Source: Actinomycetota bacterium
GTDB lineage: Bacteria > Actinomycetota > UBA4738 > HRBIN12
Length of the DNA: 64,000 nucleotides
Assembly (NCBI GenBank): GCA_035691205.1
Contig: DASSJM010000061.1
Location: 15,932 to 79,931 of the forward strand
Direction: 5' to 3'
Part shown: positions 38,614-49,058 of the stretch, one piece after another
Numbering within the stretch: position 1 is the first letter of the stretch
Layout of the letters: the number at the start of each line of letters is the position of its first letter
The notes under the pieces: generated by a model
What the model saw: the letters and a program-made list of their open reading frames with translations, nothing else
Told to the model about the DNA's origin: nothing
Database searches by the model: none
Program-made: the position numbers and the translations under genes

Positions 38614-39198
38614 TCAGTCCTCGCCCACGCACGGCGGGGCTTCGGCGCCGCAGAGCGTGAGTCCCCATCCCTCCTCGACGAGGTCCACCACCTCCGCCCT
38701 CGGCAGGAACGTCAGGGCGTCGTCGGCCTCGAACGCGAGCGTCGCGGCCTGCGCGACGTCGAGGAATCGGTATCGGTAGGTTACGCAGCCGCCGACGAAC
38801 ACGAAGTGCCGATCGGCGGCGTACGGGGTGACGCTGATCGATTCGCGGTACACCCGCACGTCGAGCTCGCCCGAGGCCCTCGTCACCTCCTCGAGGCCGG
38901 CGACGTCGCAGCTCGGCGCGAGCACGACCTCGACCGAGTGGATCCCGGCCCGGTCCGAGTCCAACCAGAACCGCGCGGTGCCGTTGCGCATCTCGGAGCC
39001 GCCGTATCCCCATCCCGGCGGGAACAGGCGGATACACGGGAGGAGCGTCGCCGAGGGGACGGATTGCGCCATCAAGATGAAGGGCGCCGCGTCGTCCGGC
39101 TGACACAGCACCTCCTCCGAACGCGCCGAGCCCGCCGCGCACCCTGAGAGCGTGACGGCGACCGCGATCAGGGCGAGGACCCTGGCCGATGGGCTCAC
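38614..39198 (-). CDS. Cys-rich lipoprotein of unknown function
   Basis: The GTG start overlaps the upstream stop (GTGA). A lipobox (AVAVTLSGC) is present. Six further Cys suggest disulfides, and third-position GC bias is strong. Confidence 0.55.
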   Translation of the reverse strand: MSPSARVLALIAVAVTLSGCAAGSARSEEVLCQPDDAAPFILMAQSVPSATLLPCIRLFPPGWGYGGSEMRNGTARFWLDSDRAGIHSVEVVLAPSCDVAGLEEVTRASGELDVRVYRESISVTPYAADRHFVFVGGCVTYRYRFLDVAQAATLAFEADDALTFLPRAEVVDLVEEGWGLTLCGAEAPPCVGED

Positions 39199-40880
39199 GC
39201 GAACACCGCCCAGTTGTTCACGACCAGCAGGAGCGCCAGCATGAGGACCAGCACGACCCCGAGCGTCAGGGTCACCCGGCGGATGCTCCAGCGCTGGATC
39301 GCTACCGGCGCACGGTCGGGGGCGAGCCGGCGGAAGCGTGCCAGCAGGTCCCGGCCGTCGCGCTTGAGGTGCGCCCGCAGCTGGGTGGGGCTCGCGACCC
39401 CGCGGGTCGCGGCGAACGCCTCGGCGAGTTCGTCCTCGGTGAAGAAACTCGTGGCCCGCTGGTAGACGCGGTCGGCGTCGGTGCGGAGCGCGAGGACCAG
39501 CATCATGTTGGCCAGGTCGACGGCCTGGCGCCACGGCGACGGACGGACCTGGACGAAGAAGACGTCGATCAGCTTGAGCTGGCCGTCCTGCACCATGAGG
39601 TTCGCCGGCTTGATATCTCGGTGGGCGAGCCCCTCGTCCCAGAGGCGTCGGACCAGCATGAGGCCCTGCTCGATGATCGAGTCGTCGACGTCCGCCTCGC
39701 TGATCTCGACGGCGCCGTCGAAGAACTCCATCACGATCATGTACTCGCGCTCGGGGGTGATCTCCACGACCCCGTACGGTGTGGGGGAGGGGAGCCCGAG
39801 GTCCTGTAGGAGCCGAAGGGTGTAGTCCTCGTACTCCACGAACCGCCGGACCGACGTGAACCGGCTCTCGTCCTCCAGGGCCCCGTACAGGATCGTCCGA
39901 CCGAGCTTGTACCAGCGGTCGGCGCGGACGTGGCTCTTCGCGTAGAGCTTGGCGAACAGGTACCGCTCGGGCTGGCCGCCGCCGGCGGCGATGCGCAGCC
40001 GCAAGGGGGTGGAGCCACCCGAGGCCTCCAGCCCGACCGGCTTCAGGTCGAGCACCTCCATGTCGAGCTGGTCGCGCACCCCCGCGACGATCGCCTCGCC
40101 CCGACGACCCCCGACGTCCAGGTGCGCGGCCTTGCCCCTCCCATAGGTCACGGGGAAGACGTCGTTCGGCGTGAACAGGCGGAAGGCGACCAGACCGATC
40201 GCGACCCCGAAGATCGCCCCGAACACGGCGTCCGTTGGGAACTCGACGGCCAGGTAGATGCGCGCGAGCCCGACCAGCCCGAGGACGATCCCGATCGCCC
40301 ACTTGGTCCGGTAGCGGGGCCGCCCCGGCACGACCAGGCAGTAGGCCATGCCGATCAGCGTCACCGCGAGCCCGGCCATCGGCCGTGATGGCATCGAGAA
40401 GTCCTCCCAGGAGGCGAGGATCCTGACATCGAGGGGTCGCGGGCGGCCCATGACGACCGACAGGTCGTAGGCCAGCACACCGGTGACGATCAGTGCGCCG
40501 AGGAACACGAACAGATGCCGCCACCTCCGAAAGGCGATCAGGGCGCCGATGGTCCCCCATCGCAGGATCCGGATCGTCCAGCTCAGCGCCAGCACGTTCA
40601 CGAGCTTCATCGCATCGGTGAGCCACGGGGTCCGCAGCTCGGCGATCCACCGGAGCACGGCGGACTCCAAGCGCTGGAACACGTCCGCCACCGTGGGGAG
40701 CAGCAGGGCGCCGGCGAACACGAGCAGGAAGTAGCCGGCCATGATCAGCCAGAAGCGTCCGGACCGCCCCAGGTCTCTCGGGAGCGGCGGCGGCTCGCCG
40801 GAGGGCCGACGACGCCGGGTCCGGCCACCGGGCAGGTGCCGCTCGTCGGCGACGACTCGAGGATCCCGGGCGGCGTCCAT
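39195..40880 (-). CDS. Membrane protein fusing a degenerate PAP2-like domain to an ePK/Kdo-type protein kinase-like domain
   Basis: The N-terminal 6-TM region has PAP2-like motifs with the catalytic residues substituted (GRPRP; PSRP instead of PSGH; ARIYLAVEFPTD, with His replaced by Glu). The C-terminus has a kinase fold (FAKLY lysine, catalytic loop HRDIKPANLMV, LIDVFF in place of DFG) and a terminal TM helix. Confidence 0.7.
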   Translation of the reverse strand: MDAARDPRVVADERHLPGGRTRRRRPSGEPPPLPRDLGRSGRFWLIMAGYFLLVFAGALLLPTVADVFQRLESAVLRWIAELRTPWLTDAMKLVNVLALSWTIRILRWGTIGALIAFRRWRHLFVFLGALIVTGVLAYDLSVVMGRPRPLDVRILASWEDFSMPSRPMAGLAVTLIGMAYCLVVPGRPRYRTKWAIGIVLGLVGLARIYLAVEFPTDAVFGAIFGVAIGLVAFRLFTPNDVFPVTYGRGKAAHLDVGGRRGEAIVAGVRDQLDMEVLDLKPVGLEASGGSTPLRLRIAAGGGQPERYLFAKLYAKSHVRADRWYKLGRTILYGALEDESRFTSVRRFVEYEDYTLRLLQDLGLPSPTPYGVVEITPEREYMIVMEFFDGAVEISEADVDDSIIEQGLMLVRRLWDEGLAHRDIKPANLMVQDGQLKLIDVFFVQVRPSPWRQAVDLANMMLVLALRTDADRVYQRATSFFTEDELAEAFAATRGVASPTQLRAHLKRDGRDLLARFRRLAPDRAPVAIQRWSIRRVTLTLGVVLVLMLALLLVVNNWAVFA

Positions 40881-40978: not shown

Positions 40979-41833
40979 GTGACGGTGGACGACGCGAAGA
41001 AGGCGAAGGCCCACAAGCATCGCGACGTCGAGGATCGCAACAGTCGCCTGCCCAAGAAGGCCTACGAGAAGGAGCTGCGGCGCCTCCAGGAGGAGCTCGT
41101 CAAGCTCGAGGACTGGGTCGCGGCCGTCGGTGCCCGCATCGTGGTGGTGTTCGAGGGTCGGGACGCCGCGGGCAAGGGCGGCACGATCAAGCGGATCACG
41201 CAGTACATGAACCCCCGGATCACCCGGATCGCCGCCCTGCCCAAGCCGACGGAGCGAGAGCGCACGCAGTGGTACTTCCAGCGCTACATCGACCAGCTAC
41301 CCGCGGCCGGCGAGATCGTCCTGTTCGACCGTAGCTGGTACAACCGGGCCGGCATCGAGAAGGTGCTCGGGTTCTGCACCCCCGATGAGCACCGTCGGTT
41401 CCTTCGCCAGTGCCCGATCGTGGAGCGACTGATCGTGGAGGACGGGATCACCCTCCTGAAGTACTGGTTCTCCGTCTCGGACGAGGAGCAGGAGCGCCGC
41501 TTCCGGGCTCGGATCGACGATCCGATCCGGCGGTGGAAGCTCTCCGACACCGACCTGTACTCGCGCTCGCGCTGGGTCGACTACTCCAGGGCGAAGGACG
41601 AGATGTTCGTCCACACGGATATCCCCGAGGCCCCCTGGTACCTCGTCGAGGCCGACGACAAGCCGAGCGCGCGGCTGAACTGCATCGCCCACCTCCTGTC
41701 CCAGATCCCGTACGAGCCGGTGCGGCACGATCGGCTCGCCGTTCCGGAACGGCAGTCGGACGAGGGGTACGTCCGCCCGCCCCGCGAGGCGTTCACGTAC
41801 GTGCCGGACCACGCGGCCACGCTGCTCGCCTGA
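40979..41833 (+). CDS. Polyphosphate kinase 2 (PPK2) family protein
   Basis: Walker A (FEGRDAAGKGGTIKR) and the PPK2 lid motifs (LFDRSWYNRAGIE...KYWFSVS...RRW). Confidence 0.85.
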   Translation: MTVDDAKKAKAHKHRDVEDRNSRLPKKAYEKELRRLQEELVKLEDWVAAVGARIVVVFEGRDAAGKGGTIKRITQYMNPRITRIAALPKPTERERTQWYFQRYIDQLPAAGEIVLFDRSWYNRAGIEKVLGFCTPDEHRRFLRQCPIVERLIVEDGITLLKYWFSVSDEEQERRFRARIDDPIRRWKLSDTDLYSRSRWVDYSRAKDEMFVHTDIPEAPWYLVEADDKPSARLNCIAHLLSQIPYEPVRHDRLAVPERQSDEGYVRPPREAFTYVPDHAATLLA

Positions 41834-42798: not shown

Positions 42799-43899
42799 AT
42801 GGCCCCACGCCACGCCCGCCGCACCCGCTTCCCCTTCGCCCTGGTCGTCGCGATCCTTGCCGTGGCCGCGGCGGCGGCCTGGTTCCTCGGGGGTCGCGAG
42901 GGTACCGACGCCGAGGCGGGAGCGGTCCCGGGAGCCGGCGGGGGCTCGGCGACGGGTACCGCGACGGGGAGCACGGCCGACCTCGCCGGTGACTCGCCCG
43001 ACGCTGCGCTCACCCCCGCGCCCGAGGCGACCCCGGCCTCCGAGCCGAGAGGGAAGCTCGTGATCCACGGGACCGGCGACGTGAGCCTGGACCCCTCGTA
43101 CATCCCGGCGCTCGCAACCAACGGGTACGGCTGGGCCTGGAGCGGCCTCGATGGTCTCTTCCGGGACGACGATCTCACGATCGTCAATCACGAATGCCCC
43201 TCGACGGACATCGTCGCGCCGATCTCGAAGACCTTCGTGTTCCGGTGCGACCCGCGGGCGCTGGATGAGGCGCTCGCGGCCGGCGTCGAGGTGGCGAACC
43301 TCGCGAACAACCACGGATACGATCAGGGTCCGGACGGCCTGTTGGATTCGATCCGGAACATGCGGCGGGCGGGCGTGCTTCCGGTGGGCGCGGGGGAGGA
43401 CGCGACCACGGCCGACGCCCCCCGGTACGTCGAGGTCAAGGGGTGGCGGATCGCGATCGTCGGCGTCGGAGAGGTCCTGGACCCGCTGACGCAGGTCGCG
43501 ACCGAGGACCGGCCGGGGACGGCGGTCGGCCACGAGTTCGGCCGGGCGCTCCGAGCGATCCGCGAGGCTGAGGCCGAGGCCGACCTGGTGCTCGTGACGA
43601 TCCATTGGGGGATCGAGCTCGACACCCAGCCCCGCGATTACCAGGTCCAGGAGGCCCGCGCGATGATCGACGCCGGGGCCGACGCGATCTTCGGTCACCA
43701 CTCGCACCGGCTGCAGCCGATGGACACGTACCAGGGCCGGCCGATCTTCTACGGCCTCGGGAACTTCGTGTGGCCCAGGTTCTCGGTCGAGGGCTCGACG
43801 ACGGCGGTCGCCCGCGTGGTGGTGCGTCCCGACGGCACGATCACGGGCACGCTCCTGCCCGCCGAGATCGTCTCGGACGGCCACCCGGTCCTTCGGTAG
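42799..43899 (+). CDS. CapA family metallophosphoesterase-like protein (poly-gamma-glutamate synthesis CapA/PgsA-like), membrane anchored
   Basis: An N-terminal TM anchor, then the calcineurin-like motifs (HGTGD...NHEC...NLANNHGYD...GHHSH). Confidence 0.75.
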   Translation: MAPRHARRTRFPFALVVAILAVAAAAAWFLGGREGTDAEAGAVPGAGGGSATGTATGSTADLAGDSPDAALTPAPEATPASEPRGKLVIHGTGDVSLDPSYIPALATNGYGWAWSGLDGLFRDDDLTIVNHECPSTDIVAPISKTFVFRCDPRALDEALAAGVEVANLANNHGYDQGPDGLLDSIRNMRRAGVLPVGAGEDATTADAPRYVEVKGWRIAIVGVGEVLDPLTQVATEDRPGTAVGHEFGRALRAIREAEAEADLVLVTIHWGIELDTQPRDYQVQEARAMIDAGADAIFGHHSHRLQPMDTYQGRPIFYGLGNFVWPRFSVEGSTTAVARVVVRPDGTITGTLLPAEIVSDGHPVLR

Positions 43900-43979: not shown

Positions 43980-46262
43980 GTGAGCACATCGCTCGGTCCG
44001 GGCGGCCGATTCGGCGACTACACGATCGCCTCGATGCTCGGCCGCGGGGGGATGAGCGTGGTCTACCTGGCCGAGGACCGTCGGCTCGGCCGCCAGGTGG
44101 CGATCAAGGTCCTCGCCGAGGAGCTCGCCGAGGACGAGTCCTTCCGCACCCGGTTCATCCGGGAGTCCCAGCTCGCGGCCGGCCTGGAGCATCCCAACAT
44201 CGTCCCCGTGTACGAGGCGGGCGAGCTCGAGGGACACCTGTTCATCGCGATGCGGTACGTCCGCGGTACCGACCTGCGCACGCTGATCTCCCGCGAGGGT
44301 CCTCTCGCCCCCGATCGTGCCTTGGCCCTGCTCCGGCCGATCGCCGCGGCGTTGGATGCCGCGCATCGCCGCGGATTGGTCCATCGAGACGTGAAGCCCG
44401 CCAACATCCTCGTGGCGATCGACGAGGGGGAGGAGCACCCCTACCTGTCGGACTTCGGGCTCACGAAGCACGTCTCGTCCAAGAGCGGCCTCACCAAGAC
44501 CGGGCAGTTCATGGGGACGGTCGACTACGTCGCGCCCGAACAGATCCGCGGGGAAGAGGTCGATGGCCGTACCGACGAGTACTCGCTCGCGTGCGTCCTC
44601 TACCAGTGCCTGACCGGCGAGGTGCCGTTCGACAAGCAGGCGGACGTCGCCACGATGTTCGGGCACCTGCAGGATCCGCCTCCGAGGGTCTCGGCGCGGC
44701 GACCCCTGGTCCCGTCCGGTCTCGACGACGTCGTGATCCGGGGCATGTCGAAGGAGCGCGAGGACCGGTTCCCGACGTGCACGGCCATGATGGAGGCGCT
44801 CAACACCGCGGTCGGGCTCCCGTCCCTGCCTCGCGAGCAGCCCTCGATCGACCCGTCGATCGTGGCGATGCCGCCCCAGCCCGGTACCGGACCGCTGCTC
44901 CCGGCCGCCCCCGCGACGCCGTCCGGGCCGTCCGCGACGCCTCCGTCGGGCACGAGCACCGTTCGGGTGCCGGCCGCCGCGCCCTCGCCCCCTCGGGGCA
45001 CGAGCCGGCGCGCCCTCCTGATCGGCGGCCTCGCCGCGGTCGCCGTCGTCGTCGTCGTCGTCCTGGTCGTGCTGTCGTCCGGCGGCGAGGAGCCCGTGCC
45101 CGGTCCGGGACCGACGGGTGAGACCGCCCCGGGCTCCGCCTTCGCGAACGAGCGGCCGATGGACATCCCCGGCGCCGGGATCACGGCCCCGTACCCCTCG
45201 TCGATCGAGGTCGCCGACCTCTCCGGCACGATCGACGACGTGAACGTGACGATCCACGGGTTCGCTCACGCGTTCCCCCGCGACGTGGACCTCGTCCTGG
45301 AGGGACCCGGCGGCCAGACGGTCTTCCTCATGGAGGGGATCGGTGGACCCGAGGGGGTGAGCGGGCTGACGATCACGTTCGACGACGCCGCACCTTCCCT
45401 GCCCTCCTCGAGGGCGCTGTCGAGCGGGAGCTTCCGGCCGACGACCGCCGTGGGCGACGGGTTCGGGTTCAACGGGCCGCCGCCCGCTCCCGAGCCGCCC
45501 TACGGACTGGACCTGTCCGTGTTCAACGGCACCGATCCGAACGGTACGTGGAACCTGTTCCTGTTCGACGACTCGCAGGGGTCCGGCGGCCAGATCGCCG
45601 GCGGCTGGAGCCTGGACATCGAGCTCGCCGGCCCGACGACGACCGGCGCGACGGGATCCACCGGCGCCACCGGCCCCTCGGGCGAGGTCATCTTCACCGA
45701 CGACTTCTCTGACCCCGCGTCCGGGTGGGACGTGTTCGACGAACCCAGGCAGCACGGCGGCTACCAGGACGGCGAGTACGTGCTCGGCGTGGTGGGCGGG
45801 CTCCGCGTGGTGGGGGACTTCAACACCTCGACCCAGGAGTTCGCCACGCTGGGGGACGTGCGGGTGGAGGCGACCGGCCGGATGCTCACGCCGGAGAGGG
45901 ATTCGGTGTACGGGGTGGTCTGTCGGGCCGCGACCGCCGACGACTACTACTACTTCCTGATCGGGGGCAACGGGAAGTACTTCATCGGGGAGAACGATGC
46001 GACCGGGGCGACGAACTTCGACGTCGGGGTCTCGCCCGCGGTGGTCCGTGGTCGCGGGCCGAACCGGATCGTCGCGGAGTGCATCGACGGACCCGAAGGG
46101 GTGATCCTGCGGATGATCGTCAACGGCATCTCGGTCAACACGGTGGTGGACGCGGTCGAGCCGATCGCCTCGGGCGCGACCGGGTTCCGTGTGGACTCGG
46201 GGGGCTCCGACGCGGAGGCGGCGTTCGACGACTACGTGCTGAGCGCGCCTTCGAGCCCCTGA
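43980..46262 (+). CDS. Transmembrane Ser/Thr protein kinase with extracellular proprotein-convertase P-domain and a ConA-like beta-sandwich domain
   Basis: Hanks kinase domain (GRGGMSVVY...AIKVL; [10 protein letters not shown]; DFG; APE), a TM segment ([20 protein letters not shown]), then a P-domain-like region ([26 protein letters not shown]...) and a C-terminal jelly-roll-like domain. Confidence 0.85.
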
Positions 46263-46306: not shown

Positions 46307-46576
46307 ATGACCCTCACCAAGACCCAGAAGTCCGAGATCATCTCCGAGCACCGGCGCTCCGACGCCGACACGGGCTCCGCGGAGGTGCAGATCGCCGTGC
46401 TCAGCAAGCGGATCTCGGACCTCACCGAGCATCTGAAGAGCCACAAGAAGGACCACGCGTCCCGGCGGGGCCTCCTGATGCTGGTGGGGCGTCGGCGGCG
46501 GCTCCTCGAGTACCTGAAGCGCGAGGACATCAACCGCTACCGCGAGATCGTGGCGAAGCTCGGACTTCGCCGGTAG
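46307..46576 (+). CDS. rpsO: 30S ribosomal protein S15
   Basis: 89 aa ([40 protein letters not shown]...). Confidence 0.9.
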
Positions 46577-46781: not shown

Positions 46782-49058
46782 ATGGCCATCAACATGTCCC
46801 GAGAGTTCGGGAGCCACACCCTGACGTTCGAGTCGGGCAAGCTCGCCAAGCAGGCGGACGGCTCGTGCGTCGTGACCTACGGCGAGACCCAGGTGCTCGC
46901 CACCTGTACCACCGCCAAGCCCCGCGAGGGGATCGATTTCTTCCCGCTCACGATCGACGTCGAGGAGCGGATGTACGCGGCCGGCAAGATCCCCGGCGGC
47001 TTCTTCCGTCGCGAGGGCCGGCCGTCCGAGACCGCCATCCTCACGGCGCGCCTGACCGATCGCCCGATGCGGCCCAGCTTCAAGGACGGGTACCGCGACG
47101 AGGTCCAGGTCGTGATCACGGTCCTGTCCGTCGACATGGCCAACCCGTACGACATCCCCAGCATGAACGCCGCGAGCCTCGCGACGATGCTGTCGGGCAT
47201 CCCGTTCGAGGGACCGGTCGGCTCCGTGCGTCTGGGCCTGATCGAGGGGCAGTGGGTCATCAACCCGACCTTCCAGGAGGTCGAGGAGGCGACGTTCGAC
47301 ATCGTCGTGGCCGGACGGCGCAACGACGCCGGCGGGGTCGACATCCTGATGATCGAGGGGGAGGCGCCGGACAACACGTGGACGCTGCTCGAGGGCGGAC
47401 GAGGCGTCGCCCCGTCCGAGTCGGTCGTCGCGGAGGGCCTGGAGGCCGCCAAGCGCGCGATCGACGAGCTGATCGAGTTCCAGCTCGAGTTCGTCGCCCA
47501 GGCCGACGTCAAGCCCAAGCCGTTCGAGCCGCGGTTCCTGTACTCGGAGGACACGTTCGCCGCGGTCTCGGCCTTCGCCAAGGAGCGTCTGGAGACCGCG
47601 ATCGTCCCCGATCGGGCCGAGCGCGAGGCGGCCCTGGATCAGGTCAAGGACGAGCTGAAGGTTCACCTGCAGGAGACCTGGGGGGAGGAGGCCTTCGCCG
47701 AGCGAGCCGCGGAGATCTCGCCGGCGTGGAAGGACCTGCAGAAGAAGGTCATGCGCGCCAGGGTGATCGAGCACGGCGTGCGACTCGACGGTCGCGGGCC
47801 GCGCGACCTGCGGCCGCTCTCGGCCGAGGTGGGGATGATCCCGCGCGCTCATGGTTCGAGCCTGTTCCAGCGGGGCGACACGCAGGCGCTCAACGTCACC
47901 ACCCTCGGCATGCTGCGGATGACGCAGATGATCGACACGCTGGACCCGGAGGAGAGCAAGCGATACATGCACCACTACAACTTCCCGCCCTTCTCCACGG
48001 GCGAGGTCGGCCGGATCGGCTCACCGCGTCGTCGCGAGATCGGCCACGGCGCCCTCGCCGAGCGGGCACTCTTGCCGGTCGTTCCTCCGGAGGAGGAGTT
48101 CCCCTACGCACTCCGCCTCGTCTCGGACATCCTGGGCTCCAACGGGTCCACGTCGATGGCGAGCGTATGCGCCTCGACGCTGTCGCTGATGGACGCCGGC
48201 GTGCCGATCAAGGCGCCCGTCGCGGGCATCGCGATGGGGATGATCGCCGAGGGCGACACGTTCGTGACGTTGACGGACATCCTCGGCGCCGAGGACGCGC
48301 TCGGCGACATGGACTTCAAGGTCGCCGGCACGAGCGAGTTCGTGACGGCGATCCAGCTGGACATGAAGGTCACGGGGCTGCCCGGCGACGTCCTGGTCGG
48401 CGCGCTCGAGCAGGCGAAGGAGGCGCGCCTGAAGATCCTCGAGGTGATGCTCGCGGCGATCCCCGAGCCGCGCACCGAGGTCAACCCGAAGGCACCGCGG
48501 ATCCTCACGCTGAAGATCCCCGTGGACAAGATCGGCGAGGTGATCGGCCCCAAGGGCAAGAAGATCAACGAGATCGTCGCGATGACCGGCGCCGACATCG
48601 ACATCCAGGACGACGGCACCGTGTTCGTGGGCGCCCGCGAGGCCGCGGGTGCCGACGAGGCCGTGCGGATCATCGACGAGATCGCGAACCCGCGCCCGAT
48701 CACGGTGGGCGAGCGCTTCACGGGGTCCGTCGTGAACACCACGACGTTCGGTGCCTTCGTGAACCTCGTCCCCGGCCGCGACGGCCTGATCCACATCTCC
48801 AAGCTCGGGCGCGGAAAGCGCCTGTCCAGCGTGGAGGAGGCCGTCAAGGTGGGGGACACGATCGAGGTCGAGGTCCAGGACATCGACGACCGGGGCAAGA
48901 TCAGCCTGAAGCCGGTCGGCGAGGAGTGGGCGATCCCCGAGGGGATGGAGCCCGAGGCCGCCCAGGACCGGCCGCCGCGCCGCGATCGGGATCGCCGGCC
49001 GCGCGACCGCGATCGCCGGCCGCGCGACCGCGACCAGGCGCCGAGGGACCAGGCCTAG
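46782..49058 (+). CDS. pnp: Polyribonucleotide nucleotidyltransferase (PNPase) with an RD-repeat C-terminal tail
   Basis: Two RNase PH domains, a KH domain and an S1 domain. The C-terminus is RDRDRRPRDRDRRPRDRD. Confidence 0.9.
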   Translation: MAINMSREFGSHTLTFESGKLAKQADGSCVVTYGETQVLATCTTAKPREGIDFFPLTIDVEERMYAAGKIPGGFFRREGRPSETAILTARLTDRPMRPSFKDGYRDEVQVVITVLSVDMANPYDIPSMNAASLATMLSGIPFEGPVGSVRLGLIEGQWVINPTFQEVEEATFDIVVAGRRNDAGGVDILMIEGEAPDNTWTLLEGGRGVAPSESVVAEGLEAAKRAIDELIEFQLEFVAQADVKPKPFEPRFLYSEDTFAAVSAFAKERLETAIVPDRAEREAALDQVKDELKVHLQETWGEEAFAERAAEISPAWKDLQKKVMRARVIEHGVRLDGRGPRDLRPLSAEVGMIPRAHGSSLFQRGDTQALNVTTLGMLRMTQMIDTLDPEESKRYMHHYNFPPFSTGEVGRIGSPRRREIGHGALAERALLPVVPPEEEFPYALRLVSDILGSNGSTSMASVCASTLSLMDAGVPIKAPVAGIAMGMIAEGDTFVTLTDILGAEDALGDMDFKVAGTSEFVTAIQLDMKVTGLPGDVLVGALEQAKEARLKILEVMLAAIPEPRTEVNPKAPRILTLKIPVDKIGEVIGPKGKKINEIVAMTGADIDIQDDGTVFVGAREAAGADEAVRIIDEIANPRPITVGERFTGSVVNTTTFGAFVNLVPGRDGLIHISKLGRGKRLSSVEEAVKVGDTIEVEVQDIDDRGKISLKPVGEEWAIPEGMEPEAAQDRPPRRDRDRRPRDRDRRPRDRDQAPRDQA

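Follow-up and report, generated by a model that had tools for sequence, protein, structure and literature searches.

A receptor-type Ser/Thr kinase with a protease-free P-domain and a divergent DUF1080-like ectodomain at the capA-rpsO locus of an uncultured Actinomycetota bacterium

Introduction

Bacterial receptor Ser/Thr kinases are numerous, but very few have a known ligand, the main example being PASTA domains with muropeptides or lipid II. PknE and PknB of Mycobacterium tuberculosis each consist of an N-terminal Hanks-type kinase domain, a disordered juxtamembrane linker, one transmembrane (TM) helix, and an extracytoplasmic sensor, which is composed of four PASTA repeats in PknB and a DsbG-like domain in PknE. 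A gene for a protein of the same layout is considered here; it lies at 43980..46262 on the forward strand of a 64,000-nucleotide stretch, referred to as the window, from an Actinomycetota bacterium (GCA_035691205.1, contig DASSJM010000061.1). The ORF list gives it as complete, with a GTG start and a TGA stop, encoding 760 aa. Its ectodomain is unrelated to those of PknE and PknB, and no orthology is implied; by analogy, activation-loop autophosphorylation driven by a ligand or by dimerization is presumed to be common to all three.

The extracytoplasmic part of the window protein comprises a P-domain and a distal ConA-like/DUF1080-like domain; these and the kinase domain are abbreviated P, C, and K when architectures are given. 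The P-domains of furin, Kex2, and the Aeromonas sobria serine protease resemble the one described here in their jelly-roll fold, membership of PF01483, and possession of both motifs given below. In contrast to those convertase P-domains, it follows a TM helix, contains an insert of ~50 aa, belongs with non-protease partners, and is accompanied by no subtilisin domain; with no such domain to stabilize, its role must differ from chaperoning a catalytic domain. Structurally, P-domains fall within the galactose-binding-domain-like group.

In Planctomycetota, DUF1080 has been reported to outnumber every other exclusively periplasmic domain found on single-pass Ser/Thr kinases (PMC11032199). Like the K-C members of the family described here, the Planctomycetota proteins consist of a kinase domain, a TM helix, and a periplasmic DUF1080/ConA-like domain; they differ in belonging to another phylum, and the C domain of the window protein is too divergent to match the DUF1080 profile PF06439 directly. 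The P-domain is not mentioned in the text of that study. DUF1080 is also represented by BT2157 of Bacteroides thetaiotaomicron (structures 4jqt, 3hbk, 3imm), a single-domain type of enzyme encoded in a sugar-catabolic operon (PMC8121099), whereas the subfamily of the window protein lacks the PF06439 match and occurs as kinase ectodomains and tandem arrays. Two non-catalytic binders with the ConA fold, CBM66 (4b1m) and the lectin domain of galactocerebrosidase (GALC; 3zr5), are only 13-16% identical to the C domain and resemble it at the level of fold. Plant L-type lectin receptor kinases likewise resemble the window protein in fold only, the arrangement having arisen independently; the window protein differs from them in its inverted order (kinase N-terminal), its extra P-domain, and the lack of any match to the Pfam legume-lectin profile. 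The general kinase-TM-β-sandwich design and DUF1080 kinase ectodomains are therefore already known (PMC11032199); what is new is a kinase whose sensor is built from a protease-free P-domain, whether or not a divergent DUF1080-like domain accompanies it.

Architecture and integrity of the kinase

The protein is predicted to be a single-pass receptor-type Hanks Ser/Thr kinase with its kinase domain inside the cell and its C-terminus outside. The kinase domain (aa 14-280; 44019..44819, forward strand) was assigned from the Pkinase profile and the catalytic motifs. Pkinase (PF00069) scores 158.2 bits over aa 14-226 (cut-off 31.7), and the motifs, as read from the sequence, are all intact: GRGGMSVV at 21-28, K43 within VAIK, the α-C glutamate E62, HRDVKPAN at 135-142, DFG at 158-160, and APE at 185-187. 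The nearest solved structures are those of M. tuberculosis PknE (2h34; E 3.9e-70) and then PknB (E 2.7e-64). The domain is PknE/PknB-like and, judged by its intact motifs, should be catalytically competent. It is followed by a Pro/Ser/Thr/Ala-rich juxtamembrane linker (aa 281-344; 44820..45011, forward strand), which has 18 prolines in 64 aa and ends in RR, and by a single TM helix (aa 346-365; 45015..45074, forward strand), the sole Kyte-Doolittle peak of the protein (up to 3.27). The RR pair just before the helix places the kinase in the cytoplasm and aa 367-760 outside the cell. The codon at 45015 opens the TM helix, and 45015..46262 forms the last 415 codons of the ORF.

The order of Hanks kinase, TM helix, and P-domain that the initial annotation had read from the sequence is borne out by the Pkinase score, the hydrophobicity peak, the PF01483 matches of homologues, and the predicted fold; the three peptides quoted there are all present in the protein. 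The protein is not a PASTA kinase: the NCBIfam PASTA-kinase model NF033483 falls short of its threshold (325.8 bits; cut-off 450) and aligns only over kinase and linker (aa 14-365), and a Pfam scan of the protein found no PASTA domain.

The fusion might be an artefact of assembly or gene calling, or a decaying pseudogene joining a kinase to an unrelated secreted protein. Related loci in metagenome-assembled genomes (MAGs), labeled L001 to L006 and L042, lend this some color, with frameshifts in the second kinase of L004 and in pnp of L002 and L006 and an internal deletion of the C domain at L003. The gene in the window, however, is a single unbroken ORF with a G+C content at third codon positions (GC3) of 0.93 throughout, as in genuine genes of this window (71% G+C). 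Full-length orthologues of 55-69% identity are present in independent MAGs and metagenomes, and the K-P-C protein is intact in 23 clusters from independent assemblies (NCBI, ENA, JGI, and Logan). In two close pairs, the ratio of nonsynonymous to synonymous substitution rates (dN/dS) stays under 0.5 in each domain, with values of 0.08-0.13 (kinase domain), 0.19-0.40 (P-domain), and 0.13 (C domain). The juxtamembrane linker is the fastest-evolving segment (0.27-0.74). Both ectodomains are under purifying selection, and since the protein is also intact in many independent assemblies, the artefact was rejected; it is effectively excluded, with a negligible chance of being correct. Pervasive positive selection on the ectodomains was likewise rejected, given domain-wide dN/dS values of 0.13-0.40 in the two pairs. 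The gene is an intact member of a sizeable, uncharacterized receptor-kinase family.

The P-domain

The membrane-proximal module (aa ~387-551; 45138..45632, forward strand) is identified as a P-domain from profile matches of its homologues and from its fold. Pfam upholds the initial assignment through the relatives and not through the window protein itself, which scores 17.8-17.9 bits against PF01483 (cut-off 21) with only the first third of the model aligned. When 5.8 billion proteins were searched with the ectodomain, 330 relatives were found; ~100 of the 120 listed carry precomputed PF01483 annotation. PF01483 is also matched by each of the 20 homologous segments that were aligned, which are 38-55% identical to the window protein (best E-value 4.8e-9). 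Because of this support, the assignment was accepted despite the borderline score. Fold comparison gave the expected jelly-roll, and both motifs, H-x-(F/W)-P-x-D-(V/L) and G-T-W-x-L-x-(V/F)-x-D, are present. In a search of PDB sequences the ectodomain matched nothing significantly, and the best match of the P-domain profile (E 0.14) was an unrelated protein; the ectodomain is tied to solved structures by fold comparison only.

P-domains were expected in the initial annotation to follow subtilisin/kexin catalytic domains, a premise that fails for this bacterial subfamily. Peptidase_S8 (PF00082) is absent from the window protein and from the 120 listed relatives, among which the partners of the P-domain are FG-GAP/VCBS, Big_5, CarboxypepD_reg, TIG, and others; in the window protein a TM helix, not the subtilisin domain of kexin/furin-type (S8B) proteins, precedes the P-domain. 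A proprotein convertase or cryptic protease is ruled out by the absence of S8 from the gene and from the listed relatives. By these comparisons, the P-domain belongs to a protease-independent bacterial subfamily. The "proprotein convertase" P-domain thus has a bacterial life of its own as a membrane-proximal extracytoplasmic module, and since it is used without a protease, names such as [quoted passage not shown], given automatically by JGI to some family members, are misleading here.

Relative to the 86-position Pfam model, a loop of ~50 aa is inserted in the P-domain. The loop is variable (45400..45500, aa ~474-507), with a vicinal Cys-Cys pair in several relatives (GGxCCGFxG) and GDGFGFNG in the window protein; it is a candidate specificity or redox-sensitive loop. 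The possibility that the P-domain does no more than hold the C domain at a distance was also considered; it is unlikely because 26 of the 120 nearest kinases are K-P or K-P-P without C.

The distal ConA-like domain

The two outer modules are separated by a flexible Thr/Gly/Ala linker (45633..45683, forward strand), the only segment of the ectodomain model with pLDDT <50 (model residues 169-182). The distal domain (aa ~569-757; 45684..46250, forward strand) is a ConA-like jelly-roll and a divergent relative of the DUF1080/3-keto-disaccharide-hydrolase family, as evidenced by its fold and by intermediate homologues. C648 and C701 are nearly invariant within its close subfamily.

The jelly-roll proposed for this region in the initial annotation is confirmed by fold, and the suggested tie to DUF1080 or LamG holds at one remove: the window protein itself matches neither, and no Pfam family was matched by aa 567-760 at E <= 10, whereas relatives do pass the PF06439 cut-off. 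Direct searches gave few close relatives, and among the window protein and its 11 closest C-domain relatives PF06439 was matched by one (E 0.005). An exhaustive search of 1.84 billion representatives with the C-domain profile gave 8779 matches at E <= 1e-3. These are mostly secreted proteins and lipoproteins with 2-7 tandem copies, and 12 of the 147 new representatives among the 150 listed are kinase fusions. Six of ten scanned relatives pass the PF06439 cut-off over exactly the profile-matched stretches, and the scanned relatives give weaker matches to Laminin_G_3 as well. The C domain is accordingly related to DUF1080 through intermediate sequences and a common fold.

Fold comparison supported the expected fold for both outer modules; for the C domain this is the two-sheet jelly-roll of the ConA-like lectin/glucanase fold, with a high structural score. 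The best fold matches are mainly carbohydrate-binding or carbohydrate-active proteins, including GH16 glucanases. Against PDB sequences the C-domain profile found nothing significant, a sialidase CBM40 appearing at E 0.06. Mycobacteriophage tail proteins were among the structural matches of the ectodomain; in a follow-up tblastn search, none of 50,697 phage genomes matched the ectodomain sequence.

A DUF1080 relationship raises the possibility that the distal domain is a 3-keto-glycoside hydrolase like BT2157, making the protein a bifunctional hydrolase-kinase that senses substrate turnover. BT2157 hydrolyzes 3-keto-trehalose in vitro (PMC8121099), C-domain relatives pass the PF06439 cut-off, and GH16 glucanases share the fold. 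The single PF06439 match among the 12 nearest sequences argues the other way, as do the tandem arrays in which most of the family occurs, which are typical of binding modules; the closest folds (the GALC lectin domain and CBM66) are non-catalytic, and no 3-keto-sugar pathway genes (oxidoreductase, epimerase) lie nearby. We consider this enzymatic role very improbable. The protein is not a proprotein convertase and is not demonstrably a 3-keto-disaccharide hydrolase.

C domains are found with other partners too. P0131 (1191 aa, from a metagenome) has a kinase domain, an outer Trypsin_2 domain (E 6e-25), and three DUF1080-like copies of C; it is a receptor kinase that carries a protease, and it has no bearing on the question of the P-domain. 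In six proteins (P0195, P0201, P0209, P0210, P0213, and P0263) tandem C domains follow a cytoplasmic zinc-ribbon in place of a kinase. The zinc-ribbon is confirmed by Pfam in P0195 and P0210 and recognized by N-terminal sequence only in P0201, P0209, P0213, and P0263. These starts suggest that the same ectodomain is also used in transmembrane signaling of other kinds.

The kinase family and exchange of ectodomains

Architectures of the 120 nearest whole-protein relatives, called locally with HMMs, supply the tabulation across actinobacterial kinases that the initial annotation had in view. P and/or C is carried by 103 of the 120 clusters (42 K-C, 23 K-P-C, 14 K-P-P, 12 K-P-P-C, and 12 K-P), and the order is always K-(P)0-2-(C)0-1; the 900-aa P0134 is an intact K-P-P-C example. 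The architecture had been called unusual. The grounds for this are weakened by the layout being common among the nearest kinases and by the earlier report of DUF1080 kinases (PMC11032199). Literature searches turned up no account of a P-domain serving as a bacterial kinase ectodomain. As far as seen, the family is limited to uncultured Actinomycetota of a soil lineage. Two compact, confidently modeled ectodomains, found in every combination on closely related kinases, amount to a natural experiment on what each module contributes.

The order ribF-capA-[kinase slot]-rpsO-pnp-M16 is conserved at seven related loci in MAGs of uncultured Actinomycetota. A single kinase occupies the slot in the window, L001, and L002 (K-P-C) and in L042 (K-P), whereas L003 to L006 have two in tandem. 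The tandem kinases fall into two paralogous lineages, with identities of 72-91% within lineage A, 74-96% within lineage B, and 59-66% between them. The P-C ectodomain belongs to the lineage-A kinase in L001, L006, and the window, but to the lineage-B kinase in L003 and L004. Lineage-B kinases of L005 (8174..10018) and L006 (3571..5319) have an FN3 ectodomain, not P or C; fn3 scores 22.4 bits in L005 and 35.2 bits in L006 (cut-off 25). The C domain of the window protein is 65% identical to the lineage-B copy of L003 and only 59% identical to its own L001 orthologue. C-domain identities therefore do not track the kinase lineages, and the identity matrices suggest that ectodomains have been exchanged between paralogous kinases at the slot. 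The capA-rpsO slot thus holds one or two paralogous kinases, whose ectodomains appear to have been swapped or lost.

P0021 (L041, 2443..3795) lacks a kinase domain: its P-C pair is anchored in the membrane, and its cytoplasmic part is a short Pro-rich tail. This protein indicates that the P-C pair is a self-standing cassette; its gene context, with adjoining Ku and SnoaL_2 genes, is unrelated to the capA-rpsO slot.

Some slot genes are incomplete. The second kinase of L003 (8416..10194, lineage A) is K-P with only the last ~27 residues of a C domain (GGVGMRAESRRKPAEVEFDDYLVTRAS), which looks like an internal deletion caught under way or an assembly error. In L004 (8377..11218) a K-P-P-C kinase is frameshifted after the first of its two P-domains, and the pnp genes of L002 and L006 are each divided between reading frames; the L004 frameshift and the pnp splits are probably MAG assembly errors.

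Possible function of the ectodomain

The reading we favor, to which we give an even chance, is that this single-pass Hanks kinase with P and divergent DUF1080-like outer modules binds a glycan outside the cell and is activated by ligand clustering. Through the Pro-rich linker and single TM helix, the kinase is connected to two independently folding β-sandwich modules carried on a flexible tether. The glycan bound would come from the cell itself, as a polymer of its envelope, or be a poly- or oligosaccharide from the environment; ligand-dependent clustering or dimerization would drive autophosphorylation of the activation loop, for which T172 and T174 are candidate sites; and the activated kinase would phosphorylate cytoplasmic targets, as in PknB-type receptor kinases. 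Glycan binding is suggested because the best folds of the C domain are mainly carbohydrate binders or carbohydrate-active enzymes, and because P-domains are galactose-binding-domain-like in structure. A further reason is that the sequence family of the C domain runs into DUF1080, which includes a hydrolase of 3-keto-trehalose (PMC8121099).

Several points weigh against glycan sensing. The idea draws on resemblance at the level of fold, and neither ectodomain of the window protein itself reaches a curated Pfam cut-off. The ConA-like fold also occurs in protein binders of the thrombospondin and laminin-G type, and the P-domain of furin is stabilizing. The organism is uncultured, and no ligand, substrate, or phenotype was found for any family member, nor any characterized orthologue with a known ligand. 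No FHA, PP2C phosphatase, or carbohydrate-metabolism gene lies nearby; the flanking genes are housekeeping genes. The observation in the initial annotation is confirmed, and its interpretation, a sensor that possibly binds carbohydrate or peptide ligands, is partly supported.

The ectodomain may alternatively position or anchor the protein on the cell's own wall or capsule polymer, not acting as a switch for an external signal. The kinase would then be kept at particular places, such as those where the envelope is made, in the way that PASTA domains localize PknB, and the polymer could be supplied or modified by the conserved neighbor capA. The linkage to capA, however, is known within one closely related clade only and may simply be inherited gene order; sister genomes with FN3, P only, or C only at the locus fit one fixed self-ligand poorly, and there is no sequence similarity to phage proteins. 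We regard anchoring as unlikely, if a serious contender.

Recognition of a protein or peptide instead of a sugar, by P and a LamG-like sandwich serving as protein-interaction modules, is a further alternative; the ligand might be a secreted signaling peptide, a partner lipoprotein, or a surface protein of another cell. It is at odds with the mainly carbohydrate-binding or carbohydrate-active fold matches of the C domain and with the merging of its sequence family into DUF1080/3-keto-disaccharide hydrolases; moreover, only capA is conserved as a neighbor, with no other candidate partner gene. A protein ligand is in our judgment distinctly unlikely.

Glycan sensing could be part of a broader scheme, which we put forward as a long shot. 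The protease-free P-domain would be an unrecognized ligand-binding sensor module and would form, with the DUF1080-like domain, a combinatorial toolkit, K-(P)0-2-(C)0-1, shuffled between tandem paralogues at the capA-rpsO slot and reading a CapA-dependent envelope or capsule polymer, or soil polysaccharides, to tune growth in this widespread lineage. The practical impact of the finding is limited: the organisms are uncultured, the design is familiar, and without a ligand no major question is overturned or opened.

Genomic context

The surrounding block of the window has the classic actinobacterial housekeeping order, proS-infB-rbfA-truB ... ribF-rpsO-pnp-pepR(M16)-dapB ... rnj-ftsK, with capA and the kinase gene inserted between ribF and rpsO. 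The CapA-like (PGA_cap) protein, encoded at 42799..43899 (forward strand; PGA_cap E 1.8e-63), has an N-terminal membrane anchor, and its gene ends 80 nt before the kinase start; capA lies upstream of the kinase slot in all related loci examined (L001-L006, L042). The gene rpsO, for ribosomal protein S15 (46307..46576, forward strand), begins 44 nt past the kinase stop and is 91% identical to rpsO of L001-L006; pnp follows at 46782..49058. The placement of the kinase gene downstream of the CapA-like gene and upstream of rpsO in the initial annotation was correct. A scan found no terminator-like site between the genes of the kinase locus, and there were no matches in Rfam, tRNA, and promoter/terminator scans covering the region or the window.

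A gene for polyphosphate kinase 2 (PPK2; 40979..41833) is also inserted, with capA and the kinase gene, in the truB-ribF-rpsO-pnp block; its adjacency is not constant across the related loci. On the reverse strand, 39198..40880 is a 561-aa ORF with a PAP2 phosphatase domain (aa 124-237) and a short sub-threshold protein-kinase-like stretch at aa 383-439 (28.1 bits; cut-off 31.7), which may represent PAP2 fused to a degenerate kinase-like domain. L042 has a 557-aa PAP2 (weak) gene upstream of ribF.
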